Shown: positions 14,420 to 63,826 of the stretch, in pieces | Numbering within the stretch: the stretch's first letter is position 1 | Layout: each line of letters starts with the position of its first letter | NCBI GenBank assembly: GCA_973895155.1 | Contig: OZ316891.1 | Coordinates: 186,001-250,000 of the forward strand | Reading direction: 5' to 3' | DNA length: 64,000 nt | Source of the DNA: Marsupella aquatica | Taxonomy: Eukaryota; Plantae; Marchantiophyta | Program-made: the position numbers and the translations under genes | The notes under the pieces: model-generated | Database searches by the model: none | Seen by the model: only the letters and a program-made list of their open reading frames with translations | Told to the model about the DNA's origin: nothing

Positions 14420-14820
14420 GGTATAGAATGTCTCTTTAGTGTTCATTTGGCAAATCTATTGAATGACTTTGTATTATATGATTCTTGAATGACATGAATT
14501 TTTGTCCAATATTACCACTTAAATTTGTATAACTCCAAGTCATTGAATACATGACTTGAATGACATATAAAATGACTGATGTAATGGTCATTATGAACTC
14601 CTGTATTTGTGTCCAATATGACTCACCTCGAGTCATTAATGACATATCCTTAATGACATAAAAAATGACCCATAAAATGACCGATCTTATGGTCATTATA
14701 GACGTATGTAATTGTGTCCAATATGACTCCTTTCAAGTCATTCTAGACATGTCATTAATGACAAATGTGTGTCTTTACGTGTCTCTTCCCAATTCAACCA
14801 CGTGTCTCAATATGACTTGT
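14420..14820. repeat. AT-rich segment with dispersed ATGAC/GTCAT motifs, probable CACTA subterminal fragment
   Basis: Many atgac/gtcat words, like the subterminal region 45610-45910 of the CACTA element. Confidence 0.45.
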
Positions 14821-32332: not shown

Positions 32333-32379
32333 TACCTACGCTTCCGTTCTAACTTCATATCTCACGGCTTAAGAAATGC

Positions 32380-32397
32380 CCCCTCCATCTAGCGCCA
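32380..32397 (-). promoter_or_regulatory. Primer-binding-site-like TGGCGCTAGATGGAGGGG
   Basis: TGG-initiated, 4 nt after the 5' LTR; primer tRNA not assigned. Confidence 0.75.
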
Positions 32398-32401
32398 AAA
32401 A

Positions 32402-37025: not shown

Positions 37026-37093
37026 TGAAGCATTGAGGGACAGGCAACGCGGGCACTGGTATTTCTCTATTGGCTTTTATTACAGGAGGCATC

Positions 37094-38020: not shown

Positions 38021-38413
38021 GGTCTTAACTGTCTGTATGCTAGACGGTTACATTTTTGAAATAAACTTTTGTGTGTTATTTTTTGTCTACAAGACATTAC
38101 TCCTTTTCATCCTCCAAATGTCTTGGTTTTGCATGTGGAGATGTATGGCAGTGTATGATTTACGTTGTACCATTGACTGGTCAACGACCAAGCACTTCAC
38201 TGATTATAGCAAGTCTGTTATGATGTTGCTGCCTGCAGTGAGCAGGTCGGGCGCCAGCACAGAGCGGACTTGATAGTGAGTGTGTTTAGCGTCTATGATA
38301 TTTCCTTCATGAAACTTGCATGTGTCCCCTCCATGTACTTAGAATATGCAATTGTATAAGCCTGTCTAGTGCAAAGGGTACATAGCCAAGGGGTGCCTAC
38401 GACAGCTGAAGGT

Positions 38414-41400: not shown

Positions 41401-42125
41401 GGGTTAAATCACCAGGCATTCCCTACTTTTCCTGAGTGGATCAGGACAACAATTCGAGAGCATAGCAGGCAGAACCCAAACATGGATAGAGATGTTCTCC
41501 TCTTGTCTGTGCCTCCCAGACGTATTGTATAGCGGTATAAACGGATGAAAGCATATGGGAATCAGTACCGTGTGCATGATGATGAGGACAAGCATTTAGT
41601 GACATATAATTCGGGGGTAATATCTATGTTTGAGCATATAGATGCTCAGAGCAACAGGGGCTGGATGGAGATGGGATATGTTGGGGAGTTGGCAGACATC
41701 TGGGCACTGAATTATGGAAACACATCACAACAAATCATCCTAATGAAAGGTTCATGGGTGAAGCCAGATTGGCATGGGCCAAGAGCGACCATGAAACGGG
41801 ATATGGATGGCTTTCTAATGGTCAATTTTAACCAAGACTGGCAGAATGGATGGAGCCTTTTGTGTTCCCAAGTCAAGTGGAGCAAGTATTTTTTTTAGAT
41901 GTGGAGGAGTCTCGTGGTTGGCGTGTAGTCTGCCATAGCTCACCTAGAGTTCGAAGGATGGAGGGTACTAAAATAGAGTTCAGTTTGGATGCACATGGGG
42001 CCTTTGAACAGCCGGCAGTAGACGTTGTACATCGGGGCCAGGGGACCAGGGAGTACATCCCCTTGACAGTGAGACAGACTTATGAGGGAGAGGTTGAAGC
42101 TGACATGGACGAAGATGATGAGTAG
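38414..42125 (+). pseudogene. CACTA Tnp2/TnpD transposase (Transposase_21, DUF4218, DUF4216-like)
   Basis: IHACPDG...CPIC, FGLSLDGANPF, YNLPPW, IDVMHIEKNV, WMYPMERYM; introns 40244-40359 and 41262-41369; stop at 41530 and a frameshift near 41830. Confidence 0.9.
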
Positions 42126-42588
42126 TTGGATTTGTTTTGTTGTGAGTAGGTGACTCTTTGAAGTGCAATGAGTAGCAAGTATGAGCAATAAATGGATGAC
42201 TTGTTTGTGCAACCGCAGTAACTTGGTGAGTAGGATGCCAGACGAAAATGGCATGTGTGAGTATGAGAAGCAGGCTGTGAAACATCGAGCATGGGTTCGC
42301 CAATGTGCCGCAGCCCTGTTGGGTGATGTGCAAGAGGCTATTTCGGATATGTAAGGGACTGTGCATAGTATGAGCTGTATGTGTATCTCATTGTGTGCGT
42401 CTGTTCATTGTGTAGCTTTTGTAATGGACTACTACATACATAACCTGTGTCGAATTTCATGTGGGTGTTGCAGTAACAAAAGTATCCCAACACTGTCGAA
42501 GCGGAGTCAGTGTAGACGGAAGACCTTCTGTAATCCTGACGGACCTAGGCGACGCAGTGAGAGGTTGACTTCAAAGACCCCTATTTCA

Positions 42589-45454
42589 ATGGCTGAATCT
42601 CCTGATAAGAATGAGGTAGAGGATTGCATGCCTGATGTTGGTGATACAGAATATGATCATGACCAAGATCCGAATGCAAGTGCTAGCATGTCAGAGGATG
42701 ATGACATGCCAAATCCTACCCCTCCACCAAAGCCTGCTTGCAGTAAGGCAACTGGGGGAACTTCTATGAGATCTCGATCGACGCCCTCTGTATACTCAGC
42801 CCAAGCCCCAAGCAACAGCAATTGCAATAACCCCCAATTTAATGCCCCCAACTATAACTGGCCGCAAGCACGACAGGGGGGCAATAACTATGGCGGGTCT
42901 AAGGGTGTAGGCCCTTCTGCCAGCTATATGGGTCCAAGTTGGCCAAGTAAGTGTGAACATTTTAATTTGTTTCATGTGGACAAGTGTATTTTGAGCTCAA
43001 ATTGGCTGATTGTGTTCCTCAATAGATGTGGGTCTGAGTATGACAATTTGCCTGGTCTGATGTGAATGGCAGACCCAATGTGGGACCGTATGCAGCCCAC
43101 AAATATGTATGAAGGAGGGTCAATGGGGCCATCGGGGCAATTCATGGGAGGTCCTCTCCCAATGGCGACAGGATGGCAAGGTTATGGTGGGTATGGTGGG
43201 AACCCAGCACCAGCACTAGCACCTTCAGTCCAACCGACACAGAGTCTGCGGAGGGGAGGAGGTATTTTCTACAGCAGTTCTAAGTAAAGTATTGAAATCA
43301 GGTAGTTCACAGAGACCATATGATATTAATGGTGTTAATTTCTCTTTTCAGATAACCCTATCACACCCCGCTCAGGCCATGGGAGAGCAACTCCTGGATT
43401 TGCAACACCAAGTAGTGCGTCAGGGAGCACTGGGAGAGGTGAGAATGTGAAGCTGGGTACTGTTGAAGTTGATGATGAAGGCCGGATCACAACGATGAGT
43501 GCTGGAAAGAATAGATGGCACAATGACTTGCGAATGGAGTGTCTACGGTGGTTGGACATTAGCTGTACTAACTTTAATTGTCAACATCCATCTGACTGGG
43601 AACTGGTTTGCAAATATATGCGAGACAAGTGGGAATATTTGGGGAATTCTGGGAAAGGGGTCAGTGCTGATTGTCTTGCAGAGTATGGACGAACTATCAT
43701 GAAAACAGAGAGGCATCGATTGCACAAAGCATGGATTGCTGATGGCAGTAAACCACATGCTGAAGCACCCCCAAGTGTTCATGTAGAACAATGGGCTCGA
43801 CTGAGAGGGACATTCCTGTCTAGGGCAAGACAGGAGAAGTCTGCACAAATGATTGCTGCTAGAAATGCAGTGAAGAATCCTACGCTTACAGGGAGGGGAG
43901 GACATGCACCAGTAGTAGCCAAATTGGTTGGGTTCCCATGCCATACATATCTTTATTTACATTTCAATATTTGAGTGGACTGTATGTAGTTGTAGCAGCA
44001 CGCTACGTTTAGGCAAGATTGACATTGAGAAACGTGTCTTGCAATGTTTATGTGCTCCAGAAAAAGCTTACTGGAGAGAAACCCACAAAAGAGGAGGTTG
44101 TGGCAGAAATCAAAAGGGTAAAGTGTGATGAAGGCATCATTGGATCTAAACAGGTAATTTAGGAGCATTATTGATGGACAATCTGTTATACAGTCCTTCT
44201 TCAGATGTACAGTACTGTCAGCCCTTATGCAATTGTAAAATTGCTGAGAAGAGCCGTTTGGTTGGTGTATGTGATATATAGCAGGGAGCAGTGTCTACCC
44301 TTACAGAGATATCAGACCGGTTGAAGACTGTGGAGAACGCTTGGCCATCAGTAGAGACTGAGATGAAGAGTCAATTCAAGGACATAGCTAGTCTTCTTCA
44401 AAGCCAAGGATCAACCTTAAGGGAAGTACAAGCTGAACTACGTGAGTTGCGGGCGATGCACATTGCTGGCAGGGTTGAGCACCCAATTGCACATCCATAT
44501 GAAGAGCCTGCAAATATTGTGGAAGTTGTGCCTACAAAGAAGAGTGGTACGTGTCATCTGAAATCATGTTTAGTGTAGTGTGACTTTACCTAGGAATTTG
44601 AGGTTCATGGATGCAGGATGGTTCAGGTTCAGGTTCTAGACCCTGAAGGTTTGTTACATTGTGTATCAGGTGATCAGATTGCAGTGGTTGCAGCAGATCC
44701 AAAGATCATCGAACCTGGTACAACTGTCATTGAGAGTAAGTAAATGTTGGTTTGAAGACTCTGTCTAGCCTGTTAATGTGGTTGAGTATCTATGCCATGT
44801 ACGTTCAATTAGTGCAAACTTGAAGGTTTGTTGACAGCTTTAGTGCCTATATGCTTAGTTGTAAATGAAGGAATTTGTGGCTGCTATTGAGGTACAGAGC
44901 CAGCACAGGAGGAGGTGCGCATACCAAATCCAGCAGGCAGGAAGAGGAGACGAAACTTAGAGGCTACCAAATTTTCAGATTCACAGGAGAAGCAGAGTGA
45001 TGACAATGATGTGATTTTCATAGACTCTCAGCCTCCCCCAGGTATTGGAGATGAGTTTTCTCAATCCCCACCACTGATGAACATGGGAAAGATGAGGACC
45101 AGAAACAGTGGGAAGGAGACGAGGAAGGAGACTTTGCCTTACAAGGCACCAAAGAAGAAGAGGAATAACACTTCTCCAAAAGGGACAGCAGTGAGCATTG
45201 TAGCACAGTCTTCTAGGCTAATGGCAACTGATAATTCTGGTGTTTGTGTTGGGCAAGGCATACTTCAAATTGAAGCAAGTACTTTCCATGGAAAGAAGGT
45301 ACTTGCTGATCATGTTGTGCTGTTGTTGACTGCTGTCAGTAAGCCCAAATATCTTCTACCCTTTCCAAACAAGGGAGATGATCCGCCACACATCCATCTT
45401 GTGGATGCTGTGGAATCATTTGTGATGTGGCCTGAGAAATTTGTAGAGTGTTAG
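42589..45454 (+). CDS. CACTA TnpA/Ptta-like multi-exon gene (exon structure approximate)
   Basis: QWARL...KSAQMIAARNAVKNPTLTGRGGH (Transposase_24-like) and C-terminal FHGKKV...LPFP...VDAVESFVMWP (Tnp1-like). Confidence 0.7.
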
Positions 45455-46021
45455 GTACCAAATACAATTTGAGACTCAAAATGTGAAGGATTGTTTCAAT
45501 ATATGACCACAATTTGGAGTACATGATGTTGGGTAATACTCTTTTTTTTATGGATTGCTCATATTTTGAGTTATTATCGTGCCATTGTTAGTTGGATTGG
45601 TGCTTTTGTGACATTAATGACTCAGTCTCGACTATGAATAACAGCATTGTCTACGGAAACTAGTGCGGTCAATTGAGTGTTATCAATCACTCACGGAAAA
45701 CCCCATATGACTCGAACTAAGTCATTCTAAACACTTATGTTTGACTGATGTATGGTTCCAAATACTTGACCCTCTAGTCACTAAAATGACTAATGACACT
45801 AGTCAATAATATGACTAAGTTAATCCAAGTCACCACTTTTATGACTACTAGTTGTAAGAACGACGTCAGTGATTTTCAGTCATACATGACCGGTTTTAGT
45901 CATAGTTAGTCGTATTTTATGGTAAAAAATAGGGGGTATTTCTACTAGTGAGCTTCAAATAAGGTTAAAATGTTTTTAAATGGATCACTTTCACTCTGTA
46001 GTTCCTTTTTACCTTTCGACA

Positions 46022-46946
46022 CCCCTTCTACGAGCCATCCTGGGAACAATTCTTGAGGAAGGAAGTCAGAGGAAAGAGTCAGCTACAGTATCCGGTTTAC
46101 CCGTGGCCACCGCCGCCGTGGCCAAGTTGACCATGCATTGCATGGGGGAGAATGTTCACAAGAACATCCTCCATCCAAAACATGCAGCGTACCTGAAGAC
46201 CCAAGGGTTTGAACACCTCATCGCCCTCCCTTGGAACACTTGCAGGTACTACGGGAAAGACATGACGGAGTTCATCCAGAACTTCAACGAGGCCCGCCAA
46301 CAGACCCGTGCGCACGAATGGGTAATGCCGCTCCTCTTAAGCTCATTTTTGGCCTACCCGAGGGTCAAAACCAGGTGGAGTCACGGGCCCCAGGGGGCAA
46401 GGGAGCAAAGTATCAATCCTTGAGCTTCCCGCCCAAGGGTTTGGTGGGCAACGGCTTCCTGATGAGGACATGCCTCATCCCGGAGATTGTAGAGCGGCTG
46501 GAGTTCCAGCGGTATGCCCTCCACATGATGGAGCCGCGGGGAGAGATATCCGCCGCCCAGGTGATCCAAGTCGAGAACTATCGGCCTAGGAAGTGGGCTT
46601 CCTTCTTTGTCAAGAAGTTCCACGAGGAGATGGAGCGACAAAGGAAGACCCTGTACCTTGGGGGGAAGGCGTACCTTGCAAGCCACATCAAGATTATTAT
46701 CAAGTGGTACGCCCGTTTTGATCGACAAACCCTTCGGCGGCTCAACGAGCCCAAGCTCACCCCATCCCGGTGGGTCTTTGTGGCGCTAGAATGATGGCCG
46801 CAGCCCAAAGCCCTGGCTCTAGCACCAGTAGTACCCACCCCGGTTCCACCACCAGCCATTGAGACACCTTCTCCAGTGCCAGATTGGGCGGTAATTGCAA
46901 CCCTGGATGCCCAAAACCAGGCCCGTGCAGTGACCGTTGAGCGAGA
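46022..46946 (+). pseudogene. Continuation of the family-B-related LTR ORF begun at 15319
   Basis: MGENVHKNILHPKHAAYLKTQGFEHLIALPWNTCRYYG and FQRYALHMMEPRGEISAAQV nearly identical to 7946-8842. Confidence 0.85.
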
Positions 46947-49900
46947 GGGGTATAGCAGTGGAGATAGGAAACAGGAAACAGTTTTCCTGTTACCAGGTAA
47001 TTTCTCCTGGTAACAGGAAATTGTTATTGTAAATGTGTACTATTTGGCAAAGTTTTTCAAAAATTCACGTAAGGAACAACCACATACTTAAGCTAAAAAT
47101 ATTCCTACTGGCATAACACACGACGTCAGATATAAGTGAAAGGTGTGCTCACAGTTGCTCGGAGAGGTTCCAATCCCTTGTCACTTCCTTAGATTATAGA
47201 TAAAAAAGGGTTGTCATTCAATTCACTGCTGTTTACATACAACAACAGTTCTAAACAGTCCACTTTGGAATGCTTCATTTAGTTCATATACTTCATTAGT
47301 GTGTTTTTAAAAAGCCAAACCATAAAACCCATGGAGGAATGGAGTATGCTCAGGCGGGACCCACCACAAAGCCAGTTATAGTCTGAATTATGTTATCAAA
47401 AACATAGGGGTCTATCAGGCAGAGTGTGAAACTAGCGCCAGGCACTAACAAAGGATTAAGTACGCAGAATATAGGGACGACAATCAAAGCTTACGGGACC
47501 ATCCAATGACACTAACCAGATAAAACAATTTTTTTATAAATAAGTTATTGACCAGCGCCCGACGCTAACCAAAACCACATAAAAAACTAGAGTATATCCG
47601 TTGACTAAAGACAAAACAACATAGTATCCGTTATGGAATACGACAGTTAAGGAAAAATCAAGTCCCTCTATAAACCATTTGCGTCCTGCCTCTCCAACAC
47701 AAGTCTGACTTCTCCAACTGTCAAAATCGGCTGGCTACATAGGGTAGACTCCTCTACATGAAACTTGAAGACATTTATGAACACCCACTACAAATGTTTA
47801 CAGGGCATATACGGCTTGCCGCGGGAATGATGACGGAATAAATCCTCCCAAGAACAAGTAGGGAAGATGCACATTTGGACAAAGTAAGTGTTTGGGGATC
47901 GAAGGTTCTCGTGAGTCCGTATTCTGAATTGTTTTCCAAAAGCAATTCCACTAGTCACATCCCACTCTCCATCCAGAGTCATAGCTTTTCTTCGAGCCGA
48001 CTCCATTCATTTATTGTGAGACACAGTTAGATTAGAGCCAGGTCTGGAGTTCCTCCCATTCTTGCTACGAAGGCGCACGTTGGGCTCCGCAAAATTGATT
48101 TTCTCTGGAAATGCGTTTACATTGATTCTCAAGTCGAATGCAACAGGTGCAGTTCGAGTTCGAGAGGTCGCAGTTGTTTGGACCATAGAGACTCCCTGCG
48201 CTTGAAGGTACTCTATCTCGCCAAGCGAGAGGTTTGTTCCTTTCACAACTGGCAGGATGTCCGGTACAGGAGAAGGCGTTCAACACCATGACGCAGGCGG
48301 CTCTTGTAGCATGTGCTGTTTGGGCAGAACCATATCATTTTGGAAATGGGCGTTCCTCTGAAAATGCGATGTCCACTGACAACAATGCCGACAACACCAG
48401 CAGCATAATGGAACCCTACTTTCTTGACACGATTCAACACTCATCTCTGTCAGAATTTCCATGCAAGGTCCCATTACACTGTGGCCCTGCCCCATATTTG
48501 GCCGTCTGTCTCAAATGCCAGCTTCCTCTTGGAACGTCCATTTCCAAAGGAGCTGATTCTGTCGGCAAACGTTGAAGCACAGCAGGGGCACTGCGTGGTG
48601 GTTGAGATGATGTTGTTTCCCTCGTGGCTTCAGGGGTGCTCGCAAGGGAATCGCTTTCACTCATTGAAGTGTCACTCCCACAGAGGTCCACTACAGGATC
48701 TTCTACATTGGTGGGAATGGAAGTGAACTCAGTGTTGTTAAGATTCTTTCATTTGAATCCTCGAGTATTTGGGGTAGTGATGAGAATGGTGTCATGCCGA
48801 TGGGAGTCTTGTGGCGAGACAATCCCAGTTGCAAGTCCCTTCCTCTTAACAGATTTGGTGACAATATCTCCATTCAGAGGAGAATTCCTATCCAGATCAA
48901 AATCGGCAGAGTTGGAAAGAATCATGTTAGTGGCTTCTTTGAATAACTTGGGTGAACTTGCTTGGTCTGCCAAACGGAATGCTAATTCCCAGATAGTTGG
49001 CCCCTTCCCTCTATTGAGTCCTTTCCGATATGCACTGTAACCCGCAACTTGAGATATAGCCCAATTTTGATCAACTTCGCATGCTTCGAAGAGACCCACC
49101 ATTTTTTTGGTTGCCCATGCTTTCATTGAAGCGTGCCTTGACTTAGAACCTGTACAGTTTGGAATGAGGGCACCTTCTTCTGCGCTTTTGCTCTGCAATG
49201 AAGTGGACCCAGACCAACTTTAGTCAATTTTTTAAGCAGCAGCAGGCGCTAGCAATGTATATAATATATTTCAATATAATGTTGCTATTCTCAAGTGTTC
49301 CTAAGTCATGAATGTGCAAAGTTCTCTGTACAGTTTAAAGCAGCGCCAGGCGCTAGCAATGTGTATGATAGAATGATATAATGTTGCTATCTGTACAGTT
49401 TAAAGCAGCGCCAGGCGCTAGTATAAACATATTGAGAAGTGAGTATTGAACACATTGATAAAACTTACCACGCAAATGAAATTCCCCCACTGACGCCATC
49501 AAACGACCCACCATGATATCCAACTCTGCAACATCATCAGTTTTCCTGGAACACAATTGCCTGCTTGCCACCACAACACAATCTCCCTAGAAACTTGGTA
49601 CGCCGCAACAAACGATGGAGCATTTCGCAATTTCTCCCACAGTCTTAGATGTTCAGGTTGCCTACCCTCCAGTACTCCCTCCGTGGAATGTTGATGGAAA
49701 GACTGGTAAAAGTGGAATGCATCGGAGCGTTCACGTTCAGGGTCTGGGTGACCCCCAAAAACAACATTGCAAACGGCAATCCATCCAGCCTGAGCATTGT
49801 CGGCCATAAAACCTTGAACGGTTACCTCATGTAACCCATTTTCCTTACAAACCTCTATCATAATTCTCCATGCCTTCTCAAAGGACTCTGTGTCCTCAGC

Positions 49901-50957
49901 TTTTAGTTCGCATGTGAATATTGTACAAAGAGCTCGAAAGTTGTGATCGTAAACGTGTGCGCTAAAAGTAAACCAGTTGGTTGTCACTCGCTTCATGACA
50001 TCAAAACTCACCCAAGCCCCTTCCAGTCTTCCGCCAGGTTGCATCTGCCGTAGAAGATCTACACCAGATCCATGACCCTTGACTGACATTTTGAATATGT
50101 GGGGCCGATCTGCTAAACAACCCTGACCCGGCAGAAGATACCTTTGGAGGAAAGAAATATTATTTGACCTTTGCATTCAAGCTAGGAAATCTAACTCACC
50201 ACGACCAGCTTGGTCCATTCAAATGCTACGACAAAGGGATGCAAATTTATGAGGAGAAGATAGAACCATGAGAGACTTCCAAATTTCCGTTTCTTCAATA
50301 TCTACGATGTCGTCAACGTTCTCGCAAAGAGCTTTCACAAGCAAACCAGCCGCCGAATTCAAAATCCCAGCCGGCTTTGCAAGAGGATTGGCTTTGTGAT
50401 TTCTTTTTATTAAGTCCTCGGCCATCTTTTCAGCGCTCCTCGAGAAAACTTTTCTACTCAGATGGTTATGTTCACCTATATGAACCGCGAGCCGAGACAT
50501 GTGACTACAGGTTTCTGTATCAAGTAGAACCTGTGGATACATATAGAACAAGCGAGCAGGGCAAGAGTCCACACAGAAAGGAATCTGTTCACAGTAGTGA
50601 CATACTATACCACCCTCTTCAATGAACGAACCCACCACATGCTGGCCACTAAGCTTAGGGGTACCAGCCCACGCTTTTGAATTGCATCTCTTCTTTCGCC
50701 AAAAATACTCACAGGACTTGTTCCTGCACTCAATGAACCTAGTACAAGTGACTTTACCAAACTCCCAGTGTTTCTTTGGTTGCACGTTTGTGGTCGTCGC
50801 AAAAATCCTGGTCCAAATGTAACAATCTTTGGCACAGTCCATGTCACAAAGTCTAGATCCTTTGGACTGCATTCCCACAATGGGAGGCAATTCAAATAAA
50901 ACATTTCTGTTGTACTTGTTTGGCAAACAAGGAACTTGATCGTGTCGGAAGTCCCCT

Positions 50958-52643
50958 TGTCGTAAGCCGTAAGAACACAAAAGTAACAAAATATCTTTAT
51001 AAACTCGGAATTCGATCCCTTTAGGAACAGAATTGGAATAGATTGAATGATATAGTAATTTTGAGAGGTTTAGAGTCTCTTACTCTATACAGCTCAAATT
51101 TTCCTCACAGGAAAAATAAGAAAACTAACAAAACACAAACAAAACAGACTTTTGAGTTATGAATAAAGATAAGCTTCAATTGAGTGAGATCATTATCACT
51201 TTGATATTGCCACTCCTTCAAAAAGGACTATGGTCTTATTATATACAAACAAAATTTCTCTTAACTCATCTAAACTCTCCTTAAATCCATAAGAATACTG
51301 ATTGAAAGATTTCTACTCACCAAACCCAAAGGTAGATTTTTGATTACATATACTAAGATATTCAATAAAATGCCGTCAACATGGATTGATTATCAGTGAT
51401 GCGCACTTTCAATCAATCACTATTGAATATACCAGAGTACAGTAATGGTACTAACTACTGTGAAAATGGAATTTTGCTTCTCTCAATCAAGCATTAATTC
51501 TCAAATTGGCTAGCAAATCTCATTTGAGTAAGTCTAGCAGTGAATTTGATATGAATCTCAAAAGGGTGTGATTGTAATTCAGTCACACAAAGTATCTCCT
51601 GAATTCATTCACAAATCATAACATATATTTTACTTCCATACAAGTCTCTCTTGTTAAAATGGAAGGTGGAAAACTATTCAGAATTCTAACATCTGAATAA
51701 CATTTTGTTCCCCCCTTTCGGACTGGTAAAGAAAGGGGTCTTATAGGTGTAGTCTGTCAACTGAAGAGTCATGACCTTTCAAACCTCAATATCTAAAAGG
51801 TAATCTTAAAATGGAAAAAATAAAGTGTGGAAAATGCAGTGGGCGCTTCTCAAAGCGTCGAGGTTTGAGCGGACGCTTTGCAAAGCGTCGGTGTTTTTCG
51901 ATAAAACTAATAAACAGTGATCTTAATCTAATTTTAACTTCTAAACTAAACGTCAGAATGAGTTGAAACTTTTCTAGGGTACTCTACTACATATAGTCTA
52001 TATGCTGGAAAAGTTTCAGACTTTTCTGAGATCTCTAAGTGCCTCAAATAAATCAGTAAAAGTGGCACAGTGTTATAAAAGTGCGAAAAACGAAAATATT
52101 TCTAAGTGTCGGGAACATAGTGGACGCTTCAGAAAGCGTCCAAACCTACAAAGGACTTTTGTGGACGCTTCAGAAAGCGTTGGCTGAATTTTGGGGTTTT
52201 GGTCGCAGCGTCCGTCTTTTGGGCTCCGGGTGCGACGCTTCAGTCAGCGTCAGTGTCGATGTCGCCTTGGAGTGGCGGACGCTTCAGAAAGCGTCGGGTC
52301 TTATGGGGACGCTTTTAGGAGCGTCGCGGCGGTCAGGACTTGATAATGGACGCTTCCAAGTAGCATCAAGTTTTGGACTGTTCCAGTGGACGCTTCAGAA
52401 GGCGTCCAGTACTTGGTGCCGGTCACAGACGTTGGATTGGTGCCGCAGTTGAACGTATACTAACTTCTCAGATGGACGCTTCAGAAAGCGTCCGGAGTTG
52501 GGCTGCTTGAAACAGAGTAGTGAGGGCGGACGCTTTAGAAAGAATGCGGACGCTTCCGAAAGCGTCATCCTTGGCTCCAAAAAGTTTGAAAAAATCCCGA
52601 TTAAGCTCTTATTCATAATATTCAACAAAAATGCCTTCCCACA
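50958..52643 (-). mobile_element. Solo LTR related to family C, 1,686 bp
   Basis: TG...CA ends, 5-bp TSD CCCCT (50953-50957 and 52644-52648); removing it restores the frame FISAG-DFRHD. Confidence 0.93.
51842..52567. repeat. Array of about 12 palindromes GACGCT-N6-AGCGTC in the solo LTR
   Basis: ggacgcttcagaaagcgtc repeated with variants. Confidence 0.9.
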
Positions 52644-54112
52644 CCCCTGCCGAGATAAATCTTGACAGTTCACTATGGCCCGTGGCCTTGAGTAGGGGGT
52701 CCATTGCACTCCGCTGGTAAACCTTCTGGACACCTTCGGAAGTGGCCACCTGTTCACTCTTAAGGCAACTCGAGCCTGAAACTTTGTGCTTCTCAGGAGG
52801 ATTGGGCGCAACTTCCTCATCTTCACTCTCAGATATTTCAACAACCTGGGGCGGAATGTCCTGAACAACCGATTGAAGAGGAGTAGGTCTGACATGAAGC
52901 GTGTAACGAAGTCCTACATTCATGTGCCAGAAATGTATTCCGTCATCCACATCAAATGCCGTAGCTGGTTCAAGTCTTCCACTCGATGACTCCTCAGGAA
53001 CAATCGACTCAATGTCATTGATTCTCAAATCGAATCTCCCGCACAGGTAGGTCTCGCTTACTTGCTTGTAAGTATCAAAAACTTGCACGGGAACCTTGAC
53101 GACGTCCGCGGTACAAGCACGTGTAATAACAATTGAGCGTAACATTGTAGATGAATGAAGTTTAGGCCAAAGGAAATTCATGCACTAACCCAATCCCGAC
53201 CGTATTGGTTGCTTATACCACCCCTTCAAGGACCACCGGCCATTAAAAGAGATGTTCCAATACGACAAAGAACACGCACAACTTTGCGTCTGTTGAAATC
53301 ATAAATGAGACATTTGTCCTTTTTGCCCGGCAAGTGCGGGTGTAAGGAATATTTATTACATGAATATGACTAGATAATAGCCTATACAAGTGCGTCCATT
53401 TCATTAGCGTCGGGCGCTACCTAAAAATCATTGGAAAAAACAATGACTTATTTTGAAAAGTCTTGTGACTAGCGCCTGAAGCTAGCATAATCATACACGA
53501 AATATCGATGTTTTTTCCTTCAAAATATTGCATCACAAGATCAAATAAAGCTCAAAAACAGTAAATCGTTACTAGCGCCAGGTGCTAGTATTGATACAAT
53601 ATACTTAATACCATAATATCAAGTAAAGTTTAGTTACTACGGGTGAAACGAGTACATTTGGAAGTTTGTTGACAATATCTGGTACTAAAATAGAACGTTA
53701 ATCAAATTATTCAAATGGCTAGCGCCGGGCGCTAGCATTTGTTCACCAATAAGTGTTTGAATTTGGTAGTCACTTCTTCGTTAGCGCCCGGCGCTGGCAT
53801 TGCATTCTGTCTGAAAGGTGTTGAGACAACGGTAACATTTAACGGTAACTAATGTTTAGCATGATGATCATGACAACATTTTAGCGTAATTCACATTAAT
53901 ACTTATTGCAATTTCTAAATTGTCGGCTTTCTGTCACGGATAAATAAAATTGAATCTCGTTGTTCGCAATGAGTAACGTCTCTCCAACCGATTACAAAGA
54001 GGGGAATAGCACTCATTGATCGGATATAATACAGCCACAACTGTTAATATGGTACGGAGAACTGGTAATCAATCGTGAGAATTTTGTTTGTACACCTCTC
54101 ATCGTAAAGACG

Positions 54113-56236
54113 ATGGATGCAATCCCCTCCTCGTCGAGGGGGTATAGTGTGGTTGGGGATCAAGATCGTGGATATTGTGAGTCTTCTGAGTCTTCATTCT
54201 CTGGTTTGGTGTATACGCGTCGAGTAACGAGATCCACCGCATCGCTTGTTCCAATCTCCGGTATTTCGTTTGCCAAGCCAGCTAGAAAGAGATGGAGAAT
54301 CTTGACACATTTGCGATTCAAGATGTTTTGTTTTCCGAGACGGATCTTATTTCAAAACATGTCATGTCATTTGGGAAGGATTTAAGAGGGTTTGACAAAG
54401 AGCCTCCACGAATTCCACTATGTCGATTGGTGCATATGGAGGTTGTCCGAACTCTACAGAAAGATAGTTCTTCCATCGACAAGCTCAAAGACTCCTTCCG
54501 TAGCATGGGATACAATTCTTCGATTGGAATGAGGTTTTACGTTCAGCCTACCAATGTTGAGGGAGTGCTTCTCACCTATACTCAAGAAATTCGTGAGAGT
54601 TGGGATCCAATATGGACATCTGAGAATGAGAAATTTGAGGAAGAATGTGCTGCCGACCCAGATTTTCTGGTTTTGAAGGACATAATGTTCTCAGTTTTTG
54701 ACGGGAACCATAGGCTTTATTTGTGGACTCTTGTCACTCAGTAGAGTCCCAAAAACCCAAAGTACCACCCGCATGTACTTTGTACTATTTTCAACGGCGA
54801 CAAGGGTTCGCTGATAGAAATCAAAGCGGCTATGCATACCGTTAATCAGTAAGATACTCTTTTGTGCATAACTTCGTGAGTCATTGTGAATTGTTCATTC
54901 TTTCTAGCATAACTTTCCAAGGCTATGTTTTACAAGCGCCCGGCGCTGCTTATATGTTCTTCTCATTTCATTCTTGCATTTCAGGCTTGGACAAGCCGTT
55001 GTGGAACCCTCTTGGATCCTAGACGCCAATCGAATTAAGCGGATCTTGATGCATGACCTAGAGTACTATAGTAAGCTCATCGACCCTGCGAATTACAAGA
55101 AGTTTGAGCAGATCAGGATGAAGACGCGAAAAGGATCCTGGTACACAAAGAAGATGCCTCAGGAGGCCCTTGTGTACATTCTATGTTAGGATAAGATTAA
55201 GTCGTATTCGAACCAGTTCAAGATTGACATGGAGTCCGCTGCGGCCCTCGGTTCCCCTTGGTCGGTCGAGGGGGTTTCCAGAAGGCATGCCGTTATGATG
55301 AAGGAAGCAACCAAGGAATGGGCAGTGAAGACCTCAAATATCACTCCTTTGTTGAGTCCAGAGTTTGAGGACTTTCTGTCTACGTGCGCAAAAATGTATG
55401 CTGTCACGGAGAGGAATAAGCGGGAGAAGAAGCCAGATACCGTGTTGTGTACCATGGACCGGGCTAGGCTTTTTACAGCTATTTTGGCTCTTGACGCCAA
55501 GCTACAAAGTACTTTGCTTGTAGCACATTGCAATCCGGAGCTCCGAAGACAATTCTTCCATCCGAATAGCGTCAATGATGATCCAGTAAAATAGTGGTGT
55601 CACACTTGGATTACATGGAATAATGTAGAAGGGATTGCGGTGGGGATGTTGCAATGTGCTCTGCGAGAGGTCCAACAAACCATTCCCGTGAATCGTTTAC
55701 AAGATTGGGCATGTGAATCATTCGAATCTCTCATTGACAGTCACAAATGATTTTAGGAAATACGGTGACTCTGTCAAGGGTAAGTTTTTTAATACAATGT
55801 GGCCCTCGAAGTATCCTGACAAAGAGGATTACTCTTTGAAGAACCAGAAGCGAGCAAAACGGTACCTCTACCGTTTTTACATCCACATGGAAGCTACAAA
55901 ACCTGATTACTTCTGGGCGTATCCCGCCGCCTTCCTCAAGTGGACTGTAGTACCGGAGAGTGATTCTTTAGCTGAATTGTATTCTATGTATCCTACCGAG
56001 GGAATTTTCCCAGCAAGACCTTTGAGTGAATGGGAGAGAACCCATTGTCCATGGTACCTAGATACAGATAGATGGGACTCGCCCTTTGATCACAGAGAAA
56101 AGGATGCTTTCCATAAGCTGTCTAAGTCCCAGATCCCAGTCAACGTTGTTTCTGACATGAAGCAGGGGCTTCCGGACGATGTGGATCAATCCACAACACA
56201 ATTGCAAACAATATGCAAGACAACAATTGTTCATGT
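54113..56236 (+). pseudogene. 5' half of ParB/Srx-like cargo gene of element 1 (stops, frameshifts), cut at 56237
   Basis: RIPLCRLVHMEVVR...FSVFDGNHRL...AAMHTVN; intron 54849-54984; the downstream part is closely similar to 61630-62780. Confidence 0.75.
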
Positions 56237-56849
56237 GGGCATCACCACCGAGATAGGAAACAGGAAAATAGATTTCCTGTTAACAGGAAAACAGGAACCT
56301 GTACCATGAATGTTTTGAAGTTTTGAGCCCACATTTTAGCGAAAGGTAACACTTGATCGGGTTCCTTACAACAACTAAATGCAGTCACTTCTCCACCACA
56401 TATACATAAACCATCGAGTGGGTCCCACCATACACTGGCTGCTGATACGAAACACACTCGAAATGTTACTTATCTTAAAAATATCATCGGAATCGGAACT
56501 GTATTCTATAATATCGCTAGGCGCTAACAAAAAAACAAACCAAGATTTCTAGCCCTTTTAAATAAACTTCTTGCAAAAATACTTACTAGTGTAAGAGTTT
56601 AGATGAGAAGAATTCCATTCCCAGAATGTTAAGAAATGGAAATTTTGGTGGCAAACACAAGTACTTTAAAGCATCCATCCGGCCCATGAAATGAAAGAGA
56701 TTCACTCAGAACGGGACAAACTTATGCTAGCGCCAGGCGCTAGCCATATATATTAACCAAATGTGATCGTTGAAAAGAAATGAAACGTTGCACATGCGAC
56801 AAATGAGGTTGGAGCCGTTCAACGTTACTAAATCTCTAGTCTATAAGTT

Positions 56850-57354
56850 TAGAGAATTATGCCTAGCTAGAATGAGCCTCACCTCACCTCACCTACAGTC
56901 AAAATTGAATCCACGACATCTAGTTTGAGGACGTTGGTATAAACCCAATATAGATGCTTGCAAGGCATGAAAGGCCATCCATGAGAATGGCGACGATAGA
57001 AGTCCTCACAAGAACAGCAGGGGAAAATACAAATCTGCACCCAATAAGTGTTTGCCGTACGAAGTTTCTCTTGGGTCTGGATCTGAAATTGTTTGCCCCA
57101 GGAGTTTCCGATTGAAACATCAAACTGTTGAATCAGTGTCATCGGCTCCTTGTTTGCAGATTCAATTCTTTTGTTGTGTCCTTGTGAAAGATTTGAAGGT
57201 GGGACTGTATTTTTACCATTCCTACTCCAAAGGTGGATATTTGGCTCCAGGAGATTGATTTTCTCAGGGAAAACATTCACATTGATTCGCAAGTCAAATG
57301 GAGATGGAGGAGTCTGATGTCCGGCCTCTGGATTGATCGCAATCCCTTGTTGAG
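56850..57354 (-). pseudogene. Transposase C-terminus with SWIM finger (element 3)
   Basis: CSCEDFYRRHSHGWPFMPCKHLYWV; joins in frame to FLSQQG at 63827. Confidence 0.8.
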
Positions 57355-59178
57355 GGGGTATTTACAAAAGACAGGAACCAGGAAACAATAACAGGAAACA
57401 ATTACTGTTACCAGGAGAATTGGAGGTAAAAACCAAAAAAATCAGACCAAAAAAAGGATTCCAAACAATCAAAATTAAAGCCCATTTGAGTCATTTTCAT
57501 TAAAATAGTCTCATTCCGGAGGAAATATCCCGTTGAGTAGTCCGACATAAATTTGTGATGATTACCAGCGCCCAGCGCTAGTATAAATGAAGCGAATGGA
57601 AATCTGGTAGGGTCTCATAGAAGAAGGAAAAATTAAACGAAAATCTACGTAACCTCAATCGAGAAGACAATGAGCGGCTGAAAATGAGGCAATTCAAATA
57701 AAAAGAGGCAGGGTCATACAACAACAAAATCCGGATCTCATTGCTAGTTTAAACCTCAAAATCACAAAATCCATGTTTAACGCCATCGAGAGGAAAACCA
57801 TACATTGGAGATTGAGCCGATCACAAATTCATTTACTTCAAAAATGGGTGAAAAAATATCACCAAGATTACACGGGCGACGGAAAGCAATGAGTATAAGT
57901 AGCGCCCGACGCTAGCTTAAAACTACAAATCCCGCCCTTCCATGTGTAACGCCATGGAGAGGAAAATGGGTTGATCCGAAAAGCATGTCCTATCAAAATG
58001 GGCGAAAACATATTACCCAGATTACCAAATCCTAACAAAACATTTAGTACTGAAAAACGAATATGGAAAGCATCCAGCTTTAGCAACGCTCGGCGCTAGC
58101 TTAAATATAGCTGCCTAGGAACCTAATCGCCATAGGGTTGCACTCCAAAATAACCTAAGCGACTGCAATTGGAACACCTTTAGCTCTGTGATTGACAGTC
58201 ATCATCGACTCCCGCCCTCGCCGGCTTGTAGTTTTTCTTGAATCCTAAACCCCTGAGCCGAATATAATTGGAAGAGGGAACTCGATGCTCAGCATGAGCT
58301 TGGCCAGGGCCCACAAAATTTGCATCAAGGAAGTCGACGCACCCCAATTGCTCTTGCACACGACGTTCAATGGGCTGCTGACCATCAGCAGGAATGACTT
58401 GATGAAACGAGAACCGATCGTCAAATTTGCGTGGAGTCTGTCGGTCACCAGTCCATAGAATATTTCTCTCCCCAGGACTAATCGCCTTGTCGTAAGGAAG
58501 AGAATTACGGTTCCAAAAAGTTGATGTCTCGGTCTCAGTGTCGACACAAACTGATTCGAAGGAGCTGAAGTGGCTCTCCACCGGTCAAACTCGGGAAGGA
58601 CTGAAGAAGGCAAGCATCTCGTCCAACGACATTGGTTCCCTCCTCTCCATGTGGTCACAACCCAGCTCGACAACGTCCACACGCAGGTCGACAACGTTCG
58701 CACCTTAACATCCGCACCTTAACTTCCGCACCCAACTCGACAACGTTCGCACCTTGCCCTAAAGTCCGCAACCAGATCGACAATGTCTGCATATTTATCG
58801 ACAATGTCCGCACCTTTCTCGACCGTCTCCAAAAGGTTGACATAGTGACTACCAACGGATGGTCATCGGTGGACACCCGTAACATGCGAGCTTCAACGGG
58901 CAGAGGACCGTTGAGTAAAGAGTCAAATCGTGACACGATTATTTTGAAACAGACCAGACTTAATTACGTAACGACAATATACGGATGGCGACAGGATGGC
59001 GACAGAACGCATGAACGATATTATGATGTAAAGGTTCGTGGAAAACTGTGCACATTTGGGGAGCGCCTGGTGCTACTAAACGAAGAGACCAATTTAAAAC
59101 CTTTTACATAAGAAATACATGTACCTCGATAACAGCGCCCGGCACTACTAAAGACAACAAGTGGTTTTTAGATTTTTA

Positions 59179-59524
59179 GAGTAAAGCTACATCATTAGTT
59201 ATCAATGTTTTTCATCAGTCAACCTGATATCAGTCGCCACGTCATCTTAGAGAGGCCGCCAAGTTGGGGCGCCGAAAGAAAATGCGAAAAAAAAAACTTT
59301 TGCGCATCTCAACTGGGGCAGCTGAGATTGACTCAATCTCAGCTGCCCCAGCTGAGATCCTTACGCCGATCTCGGCGAGGTCAGCTGAGATGCGCGAAAG
59401 TGCGAAGGCCCTATCTCAGCTGCTCAGCTGAGATTCAGAAATTTCAAGGCGACCAAACTGATACCTGATATCAGTGACTGATATCAGTTATCAGCCACTG
59501 ATAACTGATGATCCTCGCTACCCC
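59179..59524. mobile_element. 346-bp Mutator-like MITE
   Basis: 9-bp TSD AGATTTTTA (59170-59178 and 59525-59533); imperfect TIRs G(A/G)GTA...ATCATYAGTTATCA; internal CAGCTGAGAT repeats. Confidence 0.8.
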
Positions 59525-59629
59525 AGATTTTTATTATGAGCATATGAAATGAAATACATGTCTTTTCATAACAGCGCCCGGCGCTAGTAAAAGCTGGAAA
59601 AGAAAATTACATCAATTATCTGTTTTTGA

Positions 59630-62600
59630 TTCAGATTCCGATCCAAAGCTCTGTGATATGTCGGTAGAGACTGCTTTGTCATCGACATACTTGCTCTTAG
59701 AAAAGTCATTTAAGACTTTAGGGTTAGGACTTTAAATGACTTTTCTAAGTACAAGTTTCTAGCAAACTTTCTGTCAACTCCTCTTCGAAGGCGGAGACCT
59801 TTGTTTTCCCAGCACAGAGTCCTTTGATTATCCTCCTTCCTCACAGCGTTCTCAGCGTAAGACGGCAAAACAAATGGTTTCTCCGGTGTATCCAAAACGT
59901 GCAACTTTTCTTCTGAGTTGGAAGCGCTTTCTGGTATTCCATTCGGACCTGGGTAGATAACCAAGTAAGACAACCAATTGAAAGATACAATGAATAGCAA
60001 AAAATGCATGAAGGAGCTGGAAAAGAGAAAGAAGCTTACGAGTTTCAGAACATTACTCGGAAGAGTCATCGCTATCACTCTCGCCAGCAGATTGCTCCTT
60101 ACCCCCCCTGAGTTGTCTCCCCGTCCACTTCATCTGCTGTCCCCCCACTTGACTCATCATCGGAGTCAAAATTAAGTACAGACCGGAGCTTGTCCCTCTT
60201 TTTCTTTTTTGGTGGTTGAATTGGGGGAGGCAAGGTTCCTACTTCCTTAGAAGAGAGTAGATTTAAGAACACCTTGGAACCAGTTTCAACAAAATCCTTC
60301 CGATTCTCCAGTCCAATTACAAACCTCCCAGAATAGTCTCCGGCTACAAAAGAGCTACCCGAACCAACTGTCCAATCTATGAAAATGTCCCGAGGACGAG
60401 TGATGAGCTCAATCACAGACTGCATGAATCCAACCGACAAACGGGCATTCCCTGCGAATTCCATCTCAGGTGTTGGATCTATATTGAGAGTGGGAAGCCC
60501 AATTAAATTAGTGATGGAGGGATCTTCTGTAACAGACAGAGGTCTAAACCTCGAGTCCTTGGGTACTTTCCCTTTATGAGATACTCAGCAAAAGACGTCT
60601 AGCCTGAGCGTGAATATCTGCGAGATAAACCAAGAATGATATGTCATTCCATGCATTCATACACATTCTTGAGTGTTAAAAACAGAGATCGCGACTTGGA
60701 ATTTACCTGTTGGTCAGTCTTCGGAGCGTACATAGGAACTAACATAACAACATTGTGTGTTGAGATGCAATGAAACTTCTTCGATTCCTGACATTTGGAT
60801 ATAACCTAAGACATAGGATCGTACTCCCCATTATGCAAAACTGCTAGCATTCCGTCATCTGATAAAAATGGGTCCATTCCACGAAAGAACGATGTTGCCA
60901 GTGTGTGGTCGGGGGTATTCCATTTCGGGACTTTTCTATCTAGCAGCGATGGTTTCAGACCAGTAGGAAGGTAAATGAATCCTGCGTGTACTCCAAATGA
61001 TCTTTCCTTCCCCCCACGGACAATTCCCTTGTCTTGATATCCCGACTTCATGAGGTCCTTTGCCCATTTCTCTACACCATTTACCCAGTCAGGCTTCTCC
61101 TCTTTGTTGAACATTGTGTCATAGAATTCATAGATGCTAGACTCAACCATGCAATGCCTTGAAAGAGTGTTTTTGAAGTCACCAACTTCTCGTTGAACAC
61201 CTGTTGCAGCCGCACTTTCCCGAGCGGAGGATGATCCACCTTCAATTGCCCTTTTTTGTTTCTTTCTAGTACTAACCGCATCTACTGGAGCAATTGACTT
61301 CCCTTTCTCGATGGGTGTAAGTGGGTCAGATGGAGGCGATACAAAGATAGATGTAAAACGGATGTAAAACGCAAAGTATACTAACGCCCGGCGCTGGCCA
61401 AATTTCTCAAAGAGATGGAAGCAAAAATATATATATATATATATTTAGGGTTTAGGGTATATATATACAAATGAGACAAATGAAATCTAACATATATTGA
61501 ATGGCATAGCAGCGCCAGGCGCTAACCAAAGAACTACAAATTATACTTACATTTTTTCCCGGACCTTGTTGATTCACTTGGGACAGCAGTATCAGCTTTC
61601 CCTTTCGTGCAAGGCTTTCGGCTTTAGTCAACGTGAACAACTGTGGTCTCACAGTTCATTTGCAATTCTGTTGTGGACTTATCTACATCATCCGCTAGTC
61701 CCTGCTTCATGTCAGAAACAATATTGATTGGTATCTAGGACTTAGAGAGCTTGTGGAACGCATCCTTTTCTCGGTGATCAAAGGGCGAGTCCCATCTGTC
61801 TGTATCTAGGTACCATGGACAGTGGGTTCTCTCCCATTCACTTAAAGGTCTCGCTGGGAAAATTCCCTCCGCGGGGTACATAGAGTACAAATCAGATACA
61901 TTGTCGCCTTCTGATATTACTGTCCACTTCTGAAAGGCGGCGGGATATGCCCAGAAGTAATCAGGTCTAGTTACTTCCATGTGGATGTAAAATCGGTAGA
62001 GGTACCTTTTTGCTCGCTTCTGGTTCTTGAAAGAGTAGTCCTCTTTGTCCGGATACTTCGAGGGCCACATTGTATTAAAAAACTTACTCTTCACCGAGTC
62101 TCCGTATCTCTTGAAATCATTCGTAACTATATCAATGAGAGCTTCAAAAGATTCACATGCCCAGTCTTGCAAGCGATTCTCGGGAATGGTTTGTTGGACC
62201 TCCCGCAAAGCACACTGTAACATCCCCACTGCAATCCCCTCTACATTGTTCCACGTAATCCAGGTATGACACCACTGTTTTACTGGATCATCATTCACGT
62301 TGTTCGGATGGAAGAATTGCCTTCGGAGCTCAGGATTGCAATGGGCGACAAGCAAAGTACTCCTGAGCTTGGGGTCAAGTGCAGAAACAGCAGTAAAAAG
62401 CCTGGCTCGGTCCATCGTACACAAGACGGTATCAGGTTTCTTCTCTCGTTTATTTCTCTCCGTCACAGCATACATTTCTACGCACGTAGATAGAAAGTCC
62501 TCAAATTCAGGACTCAACAAAGGAGTGATTTTTGATGTTTTCACTGCCCAGTCCTTGGTGGCCTCCTTCATCATTACGGCATGCCTTGTGGAAACCTCCT

Positions 62601-62780
62601 TGGCCGACCAAGGGGTACCTAGGGCCACAGCGGACTCCATGTCAAGCTTGAACTGGTTAGAATATGATTTAATTTTATTCTCACATAGAATATAGACAAG
62701 AGCCTCTTGAGGCATCTTCTTCGTGTACCAGGATCCTTTCCGCGTCTTCAGCCTGATCTGCTCAAACTTCTTATAATTGG
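59630..62780 (-). pseudogene. 3' part of the cargo gene, with a beta-class N4/N6 DNA methyltransferase-like domain (about 60250-60990)
   Basis: HAGFIYLPTG (degenerate DPPY position)...KWN...FLSDDGMLAV, then ITRPRDIFIDWTVGSGSSFVAGDYSGRFVIGLE (SAM-binding motif I); intron 60618-60706. Confidence 0.7.
61427..61467. repeat. (TA)n microsatellite with embedded (TTTAGGG)2
   Basis: Seen directly, in an intron of the cargo gene. Confidence 0.8.
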
Positions 62781-62796
62781 TCTATGATCCTGGATG

Positions 62797-63121
62797 AGAG
62801 GAAGCTATGATCCTGGATGGCGAGTGGGATGTGGGTATTGGAATTGCATGTGGGAAGCAATTCAAAATCCGGACCCACGAGAACCTTCGATCCCCAAACA
62901 CTTACTTTGTCCAAATTTGCGTCTTCCCAACCTGTTCCTGTGAGGATTTCTTCCGTCGTCATTCTCGTGGCAAGCCATATATGCCTTGTAAACATTTGTA
63001 TTGGGTGTTTATAAATGTCTTCAAGTTTCATGTAGAGGAGTCTACCCTGTGTATCCAGCCCATTTTCACAGTTGCGGAAGTTAGACTCGTGCTGGATAGG
63101 CAGAACGTGAATGGTTTGTAG
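62797..63121 (+). pseudogene. Transposase 3' remnant with SWIM finger (element 2)
   Basis: RKAMILDGEWDV...CSCEDFFRRHSRGKPYMPCKHLYWV is homologous to 47668-48006. Confidence 0.85.
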
Positions 63122-63826
63122 AGTAACACGACATTCTAGAGATTGTCGTTTTTCGTAACAGATACTATGGTTTTTGTCTGTAGTCAACGGATATTACACT
63201 TGTTTTTTCTTTCTTTTGGTTAGCGCCTAGCGCTGGTTCCAGAACATTAATATTTTTAAATTTTCAATTTTATCTAGTTATTTTCATGTCGTTGTCCCTT
63301 AACTTAAACTTTTGTCCCTGTTAAAGCTTTGTTAGCGTCGGGCGCTAGTTTTCACACTCTGTCTGGCTCCAATATTGCAAATTCCAGAACCCTTCTTCGC
63401 CGATCGGTTGTTTAAGCCTATAACTGGATTTAGGGTGGGTCCTACCCTAAATTACTCCATCCCTGCATGGATTTTATTTTTCCTTCTCGTAGGCCGAACT
63501 GCGCTTTCTGAACTGGACTATTCTGAAATGATGTTGTATCTAAATAGCAGGGATATTGAAGGACGACATTATTCATGTAGAACAAATGGACACTCGGTTT
63601 GGAACCTCTCTTTGCAGCTATGACCACACCCTTGGCTTATATCTGACCTCGTCACATTTGGCACTAACAAGACGTTCAACTTGATGATGTGGTGGAAAAT
63701 GACGTTAATTTTTTGCAAACTTAGCCAAAAAAGTACACTTTTACCATAAGACTTTCCTGTTACCAGTTAAGAGTTATCTGATAACAGGAATTCTGTTACC
63801 TGTTTCCTGTCACCGCTGTTATACCC

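Follow-up and report, generated by a model that had tools for sequence, protein, structure and literature searches.

A 15-bp palindrome dispersed in nested liverwort transposons and its probable recognition by an accessory protein with a predicted ParB-type fold

In a 64,000-nucleotide stretch of the liverwort Marsupella aquatica (assembly GCA_973895155.1, contig OZ316891.1, positions 186,001 to 250,000; hereafter the window), three nested transposable elements carry 23 dispersed copies of a 15-bp palindrome, YAGCGCC-N-GGCGCTR. An accessory gene seen in two of these elements encodes a protein with a predicted ParB-type start, a helical middle region, and a methyltransferase-like end. The question raised by this locus is which protein reads the palindromes, and for what purpose. 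We conclude that the palindromes are a true, selected cis-element and that they are probably parS-like sites for the element's own accessory protein.

Distribution, shape, and decay of the palindrome

Motif searches recovered the palindrome at every one of the 23 positions that a sequence-only reading of the window had given, between 47433 and 63347 (no strand assigned). The copies start at 47433, 47553, 49237, 49341, 49406, 53405, 53470, 53573, 53720, 53782, 54934, 56512, 56728, 57566, 57900, 58084, 59061, 59133, 59572, 61382, 61510, 63221, and 63333. Twenty-one were found with at most two mismatches, every one of them inside 47433-63347; two copies in the window are exact (TAGCGCCNGGCGCTA), and the sites at 49237 and 58084 have three mismatches each. 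Written as a degenerate search string, the palindrome is YAGCGCCNGGCGCTR.

In 100 dinucleotide shuffles, matches with at most two mismatches had a mean of 0.03 and a maximum of 1, against the 21 observed, and a first-order Markov model of the 5,019 non-coding element bases gave a mean of 0.05 and a maximum of 1 in 100 runs, against the 23 seen. No copy with at most two mismatches lies before position 46948 of the window, and the earlier statement that the first 46 kb contain none thus holds at this threshold; it fails at three mismatches, where one extra match was found at 30793. After 46948, the half-sites AGCGCC and GGCGCT occur only within the 23 sites, except for one in a nested long terminal repeat (LTR).

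The copies are distributed over the introns, the intergenic DNA, and the subterminal DNA of the three nested elements, with 11 in element A (46948..56236, + strand), 2 in the left part of element B (56237..57355, + strand), and 10 in element C (57356..63826, − strand). Six of the 23 are located in introns and five between the divergent genes of A, and those closest to the element ends are 210-490 bases away from them. Their confinement to the non-coding DNA of these elements, also proposed previously, was borne out: all 23 copies fell outside exons, non-coding DNA representing 5,019 of the 15,007 element bases, on a hand-drawn exon map, which followed frames and splice sites and was not blind, the motif positions having been available beforehand.

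In the symmetrised profile, the consensus extends more weakly by another 2-3 bases at both ends. The spacer is 1 bp in all copies, and its base is free (C in nine copies, A in eight, G in three, and T in three). No compensated change was found among the 138 inner arm pairs, and 16 of the 19 inner departures from the consensus are C>T or G>A, suggesting that the double-stranded site is fixed and erodes in copies that have died and become methylated. Site spacings of 62-72 and 103-147 bases were observed, with no convincing helical phasing by eye. Four single copies tested as single-stranded DNA folded at −5.4 to −12.5 kcal/mol.

Most copies are probably not duplicates of one another, since the flanks compared over all pairs agree at a median of 18 of 54 bases. 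These flanks are 68% AT, so that their previous description as mostly unrelated and AT-rich was accurate for the bulk of the sites, but some copies are homologous or locally duplicated. The sites at 47433/63333 and 47553/63221 occupy equivalent positions in the homologous left ends of A and C, 49341 and 49406 lie within a common 32-bp local duplication, and weaker local duplications involve 59133/59572 and 57900/58084.

The palindrome was also compared between subfamilies. In their non-coding left ends, A and C share 68% identity and B aligns with them at 44-45%; the 3' ends of the transposase-like genes of A and B are 63% identical. When the non-coding end of B was compared with A and C by blastn, all three matches with an E value below 0.1 corresponded to the palindrome. 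As the sole non-coding sequence common to B and A/C, the motif thus appears to outlast its surroundings.

The accessory protein and other candidate binders

The fixed 1-base spacer, the lack of lone half-sites, the confinement to one family, and the exclusion from exons together point to a family-specific dimeric binder. ParB-family dimers are reported to read palindromic sites (10.1101/2025.10.10.680097), and since the element encodes a ParB-fold protein, this accessory protein is a candidate binder.

In element A, the accessory gene (+ strand) begins with the exon for the ParB-fold domain (R...DGNHR...N; 54020..54848, start approximate), which contains one in-frame TAG. A GT-AG intron holding the palindrome at 54934 follows (54849..54984), and homolog fragments stop at the same point. 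The helical middle region (54985..56236) contains stops and one frameshift and is cut by element B. The broken copy of element C (59620..62781, − strand, borders approximate) comprises the helical middle region (62781-61551), an intron at about 61550-61340 with two palindromes, and the methyltransferase-like exons (a motif IV-like YLPTG near 60965 and the SAM-binding DWTVGSG near 60370), followed by an acidic tail. Of 215 codons compared between A and C, 54 differ synonymously and 22 non-synonymously, suggesting that the gene was once under purifying selection. A perfect inverted repeat with 25-bp arms is present at the 3' end of the gene (59689-59756) and has other letters in other copies.

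A search with the first exon returned six relatives, and a profile of the exon and five of these matched 388 cluster representatives, 150 of which were among the matches listed. The source was looked up for 20 of the matches listed: 10 are from Riccia sorocarpa and four from Adiantum, while the remaining six, like the closest relatives of the exon, are metagenome or Logan fragments. Longer relatives of the accessory protein were not found by word-based protein searches, but by a full HMMER search. Among them, the Riccia protein P0162 (1,207 residues) is collinear with the N-terminal, middle, and C-terminal parts of the window's accessory protein. Protein P0007 (Logan) is a natural deletion product in which the ParB-like start is fused directly to the methyltransferase motif-I region, which supports a single gene in another source.

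The N-terminus of the accessory protein is predicted to adopt a ParB-type fold. We modeled residues 154-690 of P0162 from a 127-row alignment and obtained predicted local distance difference test (pLDDT) scores of about 86-98 across the first 170 residues; folding the ParB-like exon of the window from its sequence alone gave no usable model (pLDDT 36.9). With Foldseek, the first eight rows were ParB, Noc, or ParB-N structures, with a best E value of 0.19 and none reaching 0.001. Realignment of the model to Caulobacter ParB (7bm8) gave a Z score of 9.2 and a root mean square deviation (rmsd) of 2.3 Å over 98 residues, in line with the ParB-like domain attributed to the cargo protein by the sequence-only reading. 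Structural ranks 1-14 all belonged to the ParB family (including Noc and KorB), the first unrelated row had a Z score of 5.3, and phage ParB-like proteins came on top in a viral library. In 114 aligned relatives, the pocket residues R55, G140, R143, and N187 are kept in 87, 106, 93, and 80 sequences, respectively, and the D/E-G-N-H-R box, flanked by the R and N that correspond to R55 and N187, is intact in 87. Profile searches with this domain matched DUF1015 weakly in 6 and DndB in 5 of the 114 relatives. The middle region is all-helical in the P0162 model and recalls by eye the DNA-binding region of ParB; an Atlas search with it returned no named family among the matching clusters.

The methyltransferase-like part noticed previously was recovered as a C-terminus of the beta-class N6-adenine/N4-cytosine (N6A/N4C) type. 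It matches PF01555 at positions 164-218 (E 2.9e-4, below the curated cut-off) and DpnA (E 1.4e-4), the Riccia relatives reaching E values of 1e-5 to 5e-5, and the S-adenosylmethionine (SAM)-binding motif I lies C-terminal to the catalytic motif, which is the beta-class order. Catalytic motif IV of N6A/N4C methyltransferases follows the pattern (D/N/S)-P-P-(Y/F/W). This canonical motif was found neither in the six named relatives having the region, all of which show D-[LMVF]-P-[TSFI]-G, nor in the window copy, which shows Y-L-P-T-G. In contigs of the public runs aligned to 60920-61600, the 40 of 84 rows listed contain no change at the motif-IV codon, one A>C place per run lying outside the listing, and one X5 contig was the same as the window there. 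The free centre base of the palindrome and the atypical catalytic motif lend no support to the earlier suggestion that CCNGG is a methylation target. Sub-threshold Pfam matches (Anthrax_toxA at E 0.03, TRAPP, and Ntox5) were considered to be due to chance.

A dimer of the accessory protein would read the two arms of the palindrome via its helical middle region, and the nucleotide pocket would gate its loading. The protein would possibly spread as a ParB-like clamp from about 19 sites over the element of about 11.5 kb, and its methyltransferase-like end would mark or shield the element DNA, leading to escape from host silencing, as VANC does for VANDAL. Provided that the accessory protein binds, clamp-type spreading has about an even chance, and catalytically active methylation is the more doubtful component. 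VANC21 was shown to bind short motifs of the element that encodes it, located in introns and in non-coding intergenic and terminal DNA (PMC5735166), and VirB is a CTP-binding ParB-family anti-silencer (PMC10653881). This VANC21-like layout and the anti-silencing by VirB suggest, by analogy, that anti-silencing or self-marking would be the likeliest purpose and, if binding occurs, a reasonably probable one.

Several observations weigh against recognition of the palindromes by the accessory protein. The ParB-type fold was predicted for the Riccia relative, not for the window's own protein, and no sequence profile of ParB matched the N-terminal domain, including in comparisons with solved structures. 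Box II of chromosomal ParB is GxxRxxA, whereas the accessory protein has DGNHR. Alignments extended into the ParB DNA-binding region have an rmsd of 9-15 Å, and the profile search with the middle region found no ParB and did not establish a helix-turn-helix. The atypical motif IV makes catalysis doubtful. The accessory gene was seen in elements A and C, any counterpart in B lying outside the window, and scans of metagenome contigs, viral genomes, and prokaryote genomes found no DNA around relatives of the accessory protein. In addition, numerous ParB-fold fusions were found in vitro to bind either ATP or nothing, and their nucleotide specificity is reported not to be predictable from sequence or models (10.1101/2025.10.10.680097). 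Finally, the palindrome is common to a subfamily that is only 63% identical in coding DNA, while VANC targets diverge quickly; such a slow change of the motif would suit a host factor too.

The accessory protein may also bind the palindromes for tethering, for segregation of excised copies, or for self-repression, rather than for anti-silencing, an alternative that we consider unlikely. Besides anti-silencing, ParB-fold proteins are known to act in segregation and in repression over long ranges (10.1101/2025.10.10.680097), five sites are clustered between the divergent promoters of A, and the methyltransferase motif is atypical. However, the sites are present in nearly all non-coding parts, like those of VANC21 (PMC5735166), the SAM-binding motif is retained, and no ParA-like partner gene was matched among the element frames scanned, parts of A and B lying outside the window.

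Recognition by the transposase, through its Cys/His-rich N-terminal part, for autoregulation or for gathering the element for transposition, is improbable. The transposase-like gene is present in all three elements, and in A (47700..53184, − strand), where it is broken and its borders, drawn from frames and intron ends, are approximate, it comprises this N-terminal part (50219-50952), a DDE-like core (49469-50218), a 276-bp intron with three palindromes (49193-49468), and a SWIM-like Cys/His motif at the C-terminus. From its motif patterns (DDE-like core, SWIM-like end, and Cys/His-rich start), we take the gene to resemble Mutator by eye, but no match was found in Pfam, NCBIfam, or PDB. The "Mutator" and "GCM" labels of the sequence-only reading are thus supported by these motifs and by a 9-bp target duplication, and not by any profile. 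In favor of the transposase, two sites recur at equivalent positions in the left ends of A and C, and the N-terminal part, read by eye, is a candidate zinc-binding region. Transposase sites are usually located at element termini, and the termini have their own ACAGGAA/TTCCTGT repeats, which a sequence search located, with no strand assigned, at 46971..47019, 56260-56297, 57371-57399, and 63754-63810. Of the 16 matches after 46900, 14 are within about 75 bases of an element end, and these repeats are likely the transposase sites, distinct from the palindrome. The presence of a different repeat at the termini weighs against the transposase as palindrome binder, as does the location of the palindromes, which keep 210-490 bases from the ends and include the 6 intronic sites and the 5 between the divergent genes of A.

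A host DNA-binding protein that maintains the element in an open or expressed state (a transcription, insulator, or demethylation factor) is also quite improbable. It would explain why the motif is unchanged between subfamilies whose other non-coding DNA no longer aligns. However, no copy with at most two mismatches was detected in 46.9 kb of other transposon DNA, which includes a CACTA element and LTR elements, and both nested insertions lack one as well. Moreover, a palindrome with 14 specified bases is long for a plant transcription factor, and the element encodes its own candidate binder.

That the palindromes have no protein partner, having arisen as by-products of local duplication or acting as small hairpins in RNA or DNA, is very improbable: the duplicated pairs and the folding energies given above are consistent with it, but most copies are not duplicates, no inner pair shows a compensated change, the 1-base spacer forces a strained loop, and without selection a CG-rich motif would be worn away, as illustrated by the C>T and G>A departures.

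The nested elements and their surroundings

Sequence and terminal alignment define element A by a left end beginning with GGGTAT, the transposase-like gene facing this end, and the divergent accessory gene. One contig of run X3 ends at 46948, the left border of A. Element A is broken at 56237 by element B, which is inserted in its accessory gene, and the remaining part of A is outside the window. Element B belongs to a diverged subfamily and shows its left end and the 3' end of its transposase-like gene before it is interrupted in this gene by element C; it continues at 63827. An 865-base contig of run X6 begins at 56237, the left border of B. The two successive insertions of the family into itself (56237 and 57356) may reflect targeting of its own DNA.

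Element C, delimited by terminal alignment and an empty-site joint, is an internally deleted copy with, in order, the left end, the transposase 3' end, the deletion, the 3' two-thirds of the accessory gene, a third frame, and the right end. It has GGGTAT termini and a 9-bp target duplication whose two copies agree at 7 of 9 bases and which could be read as 8 bp if one further G is assigned to the element. The empty-site joint (57343/4 to 63824/5) was found in three of four runs. The four runs, which are public and come from three organisms, supply contigs for every one of the 30 bins of the element region. A higher depth at the bin with site 61382 (X3, 2990 vs 304 and 112) was not counted; the adjoining AT repeat was skipped.

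Two smaller insertions lacking the palindrome were identified (no strand assigned). An LTR-like insert with a 5-bp duplication lies in the transposase gene of A (50953..52643); its empty-site joint (50952/3 to 52644/5) was present in three of four runs, and it is 67% identical over 722 bases to 3598-4292. A miniature inverted-repeat element of 355 bp (59170..59524) has a 9-bp duplication and internal CAGCTGAG inverted repeats. Empty sites of element C, the 1.7-kb LTR-like insert, and the 355-bp miniature element indicate a multi-copy mobile family.

A composite layout drawn from A and C measures about 11.5 kb, with 19 palindromes counted from the site list and the terminal alignment. It contains the left end, the transposase-like gene directed toward it, the divergent accessory gene, a possible third gene, and the right end. 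This possible third gene, in the right arm of C (58180..58870, − strand), is frameshifted and has no family match.

A second palindrome family, GACGCT-N6-AGCGTC, is represented by 11 perfect copies at 51842-52566 and 3127-3392, located in the nested LTR-like insert and in related LTR-like sequence that precedes a gag frame. The half-site of this family, AGCGTC, differs by a single base from that of the Mutator-like elements but has the opposite orientation and a 6-base spacer.

Element A sits in a very-high-depth repeat (45951-46947) with further copies at 7849-8611 and 12873-13093. Before this repeat, the stretch 37037-45950 holds a CACTA-type element, which encodes Transposase_21 and DUF4218, ends with CTACTAGTG near 45950, and has ATGAC/GTCAT subterminal repeats, and, preceding it, a frame with two BRCT domains (37037-38020). 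Tandem ATGAC/GTCAT-rich repeats at 14559-14763 resemble the CACTA subterminal repeats at 45.6-45.9 kb. A Ty3-type retrotransposon (21551-37026) has two 4,628-bp terminal repeats that are 99.8% identical; each contains an open frame of 1,213 codons for which Pfam gave no significant match.

Related systems and significance

Self-binding ParB accessory modules have already been proposed in print for algal transposons; what is new here is a land-plant lineage with a dispersed, conserved candidate site. The accessory protein of Sola1-1_Ec32 from Ectocarpus, of about 1,100 residues, was proposed to bind and modify its own element, and it likewise has ParB-like and N4C/N6A methyltransferase domains encoded on the strand opposite the transposase (PMC12477816). 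It differs in transposon superfamily and host kingdom, the catalytic motif of the present family is atypical, and "palindrom" does not occur in the accessible text of that report. PAG2/PAG3 of the red-algal Plavaka (EnSpm) elements, which, like the Sola protein, we compared with the accessory protein by domain order only, have a ParB-like domain, nearby inverted repeats proposed as sites, and a PF01555 methylase, and homologs were reported in Mutator elements of Chondrus (10.1101/2025.02.11.637652). In Plavaka, however, one gene fuses ParB to a 2-oxoglutarate (2OG) oxygenase and another fuses the methylase to SET, and the repeats are tandem arrays beside PAG3 rather than single sites across introns and ends (10.1101/2025.02.11.637652).

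Like the elements of the window, which are putatively of Mutator type, VANDAL of Arabidopsis is a Mutator-type element with an accessory gene, VANC, and non-coding motifs spread by local duplication (PMC5735166). Unlike the palindrome of the window, the VANC motifs are not palindromic, measure 8-9 bases, and diverge from family to family, and in the accessible text VANC is not described as having a ParB or methyltransferase fold (PMC5735166). The function of VANC is demonstrated, whereas that of the window's accessory protein is predicted.

With bacterial ParB/parS, the system shares the predicted ParB N-terminal fold, a conserved GxxR with flanking R and N, and multiple palindromes of fixed geometry. 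It differs by the DGNHR box, a much longer helical middle region, the lack of a visible ParA, a fused methyltransferase-like domain, and a spliced eukaryotic gene. For green-algal relatives, the 2011 work of Iyer et al. is reportedly cited.

Bacterial-origin beta-class domains of the PF01555 type are also found in eukaryotes in MpDN4MT1 of the liverwort Marchantia and N4CMT of bdelloids, but these enzymes belong to the host, their SPPY-type motif is intact, and the accessible text mentions no ParB domain in them. Fusions of ParB, helix-turn-helix, and methyltransferase domains were reported in chlorophytes and chytrids by Iyer et al. (PMC4738411). The literature search, which did not extend to most subscription papers and some supplements, found no account of the present accessory/palindrome family in liverworts or ferns, and the accessible text of PMC6431247, PMC12973397, PMC8885841, and a preprint on Marchantia N4-methylcytosine contains nothing on it.

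When the ParB-like exon of a close relative was compared with Atlas clusters, those of DUF3723 (PF12520) were the top language-model look-alikes (0.95-0.96; 184-190 of 256 features). DUF3723 is a conserved cargo gene of the ascomycete Starship giant transposons, and its function is stated to be unknown in the accessible literature. The similarity has no alignment or hidden Markov model support: the families listed for the 114 relatives (25 of 42) do not include PF12520. A relationship between the two domains is thus a lead only.

At its broadest, the proposal would be that transposons of seed-free land plants carry a working nucleotide-gated ParB/parS-like clamp that spreads from private palindromes, with a rewired methyltransferase laying or reading a protective mark, and that the same module in algal Sola, Plavaka, and Starship DUF3723 elements constitutes a general self-recognition device among giant transposons of eukaryotes; as a whole, we regard this as speculative and rather unlikely.

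The algal ParB-type accessory genes have no tested site, whereas the window offers a precise 15-bp candidate that the subfamilies have retained. Together with the full-length relatives from Riccia and Adiantum, it allows direct tests of the idea in vitro and in Marchantia or Physcomitrium. If the DUF3723 lead holds, the mechanism of a core Starship gene would become approachable for the first time. If the palindromes are indeed read by the accessory protein, the module would extend to land plants, a bacterial segregation fold would have been reused in the conflict between host and transposon, and the system might yield a compact protein-site pair for targeted epigenetic change.

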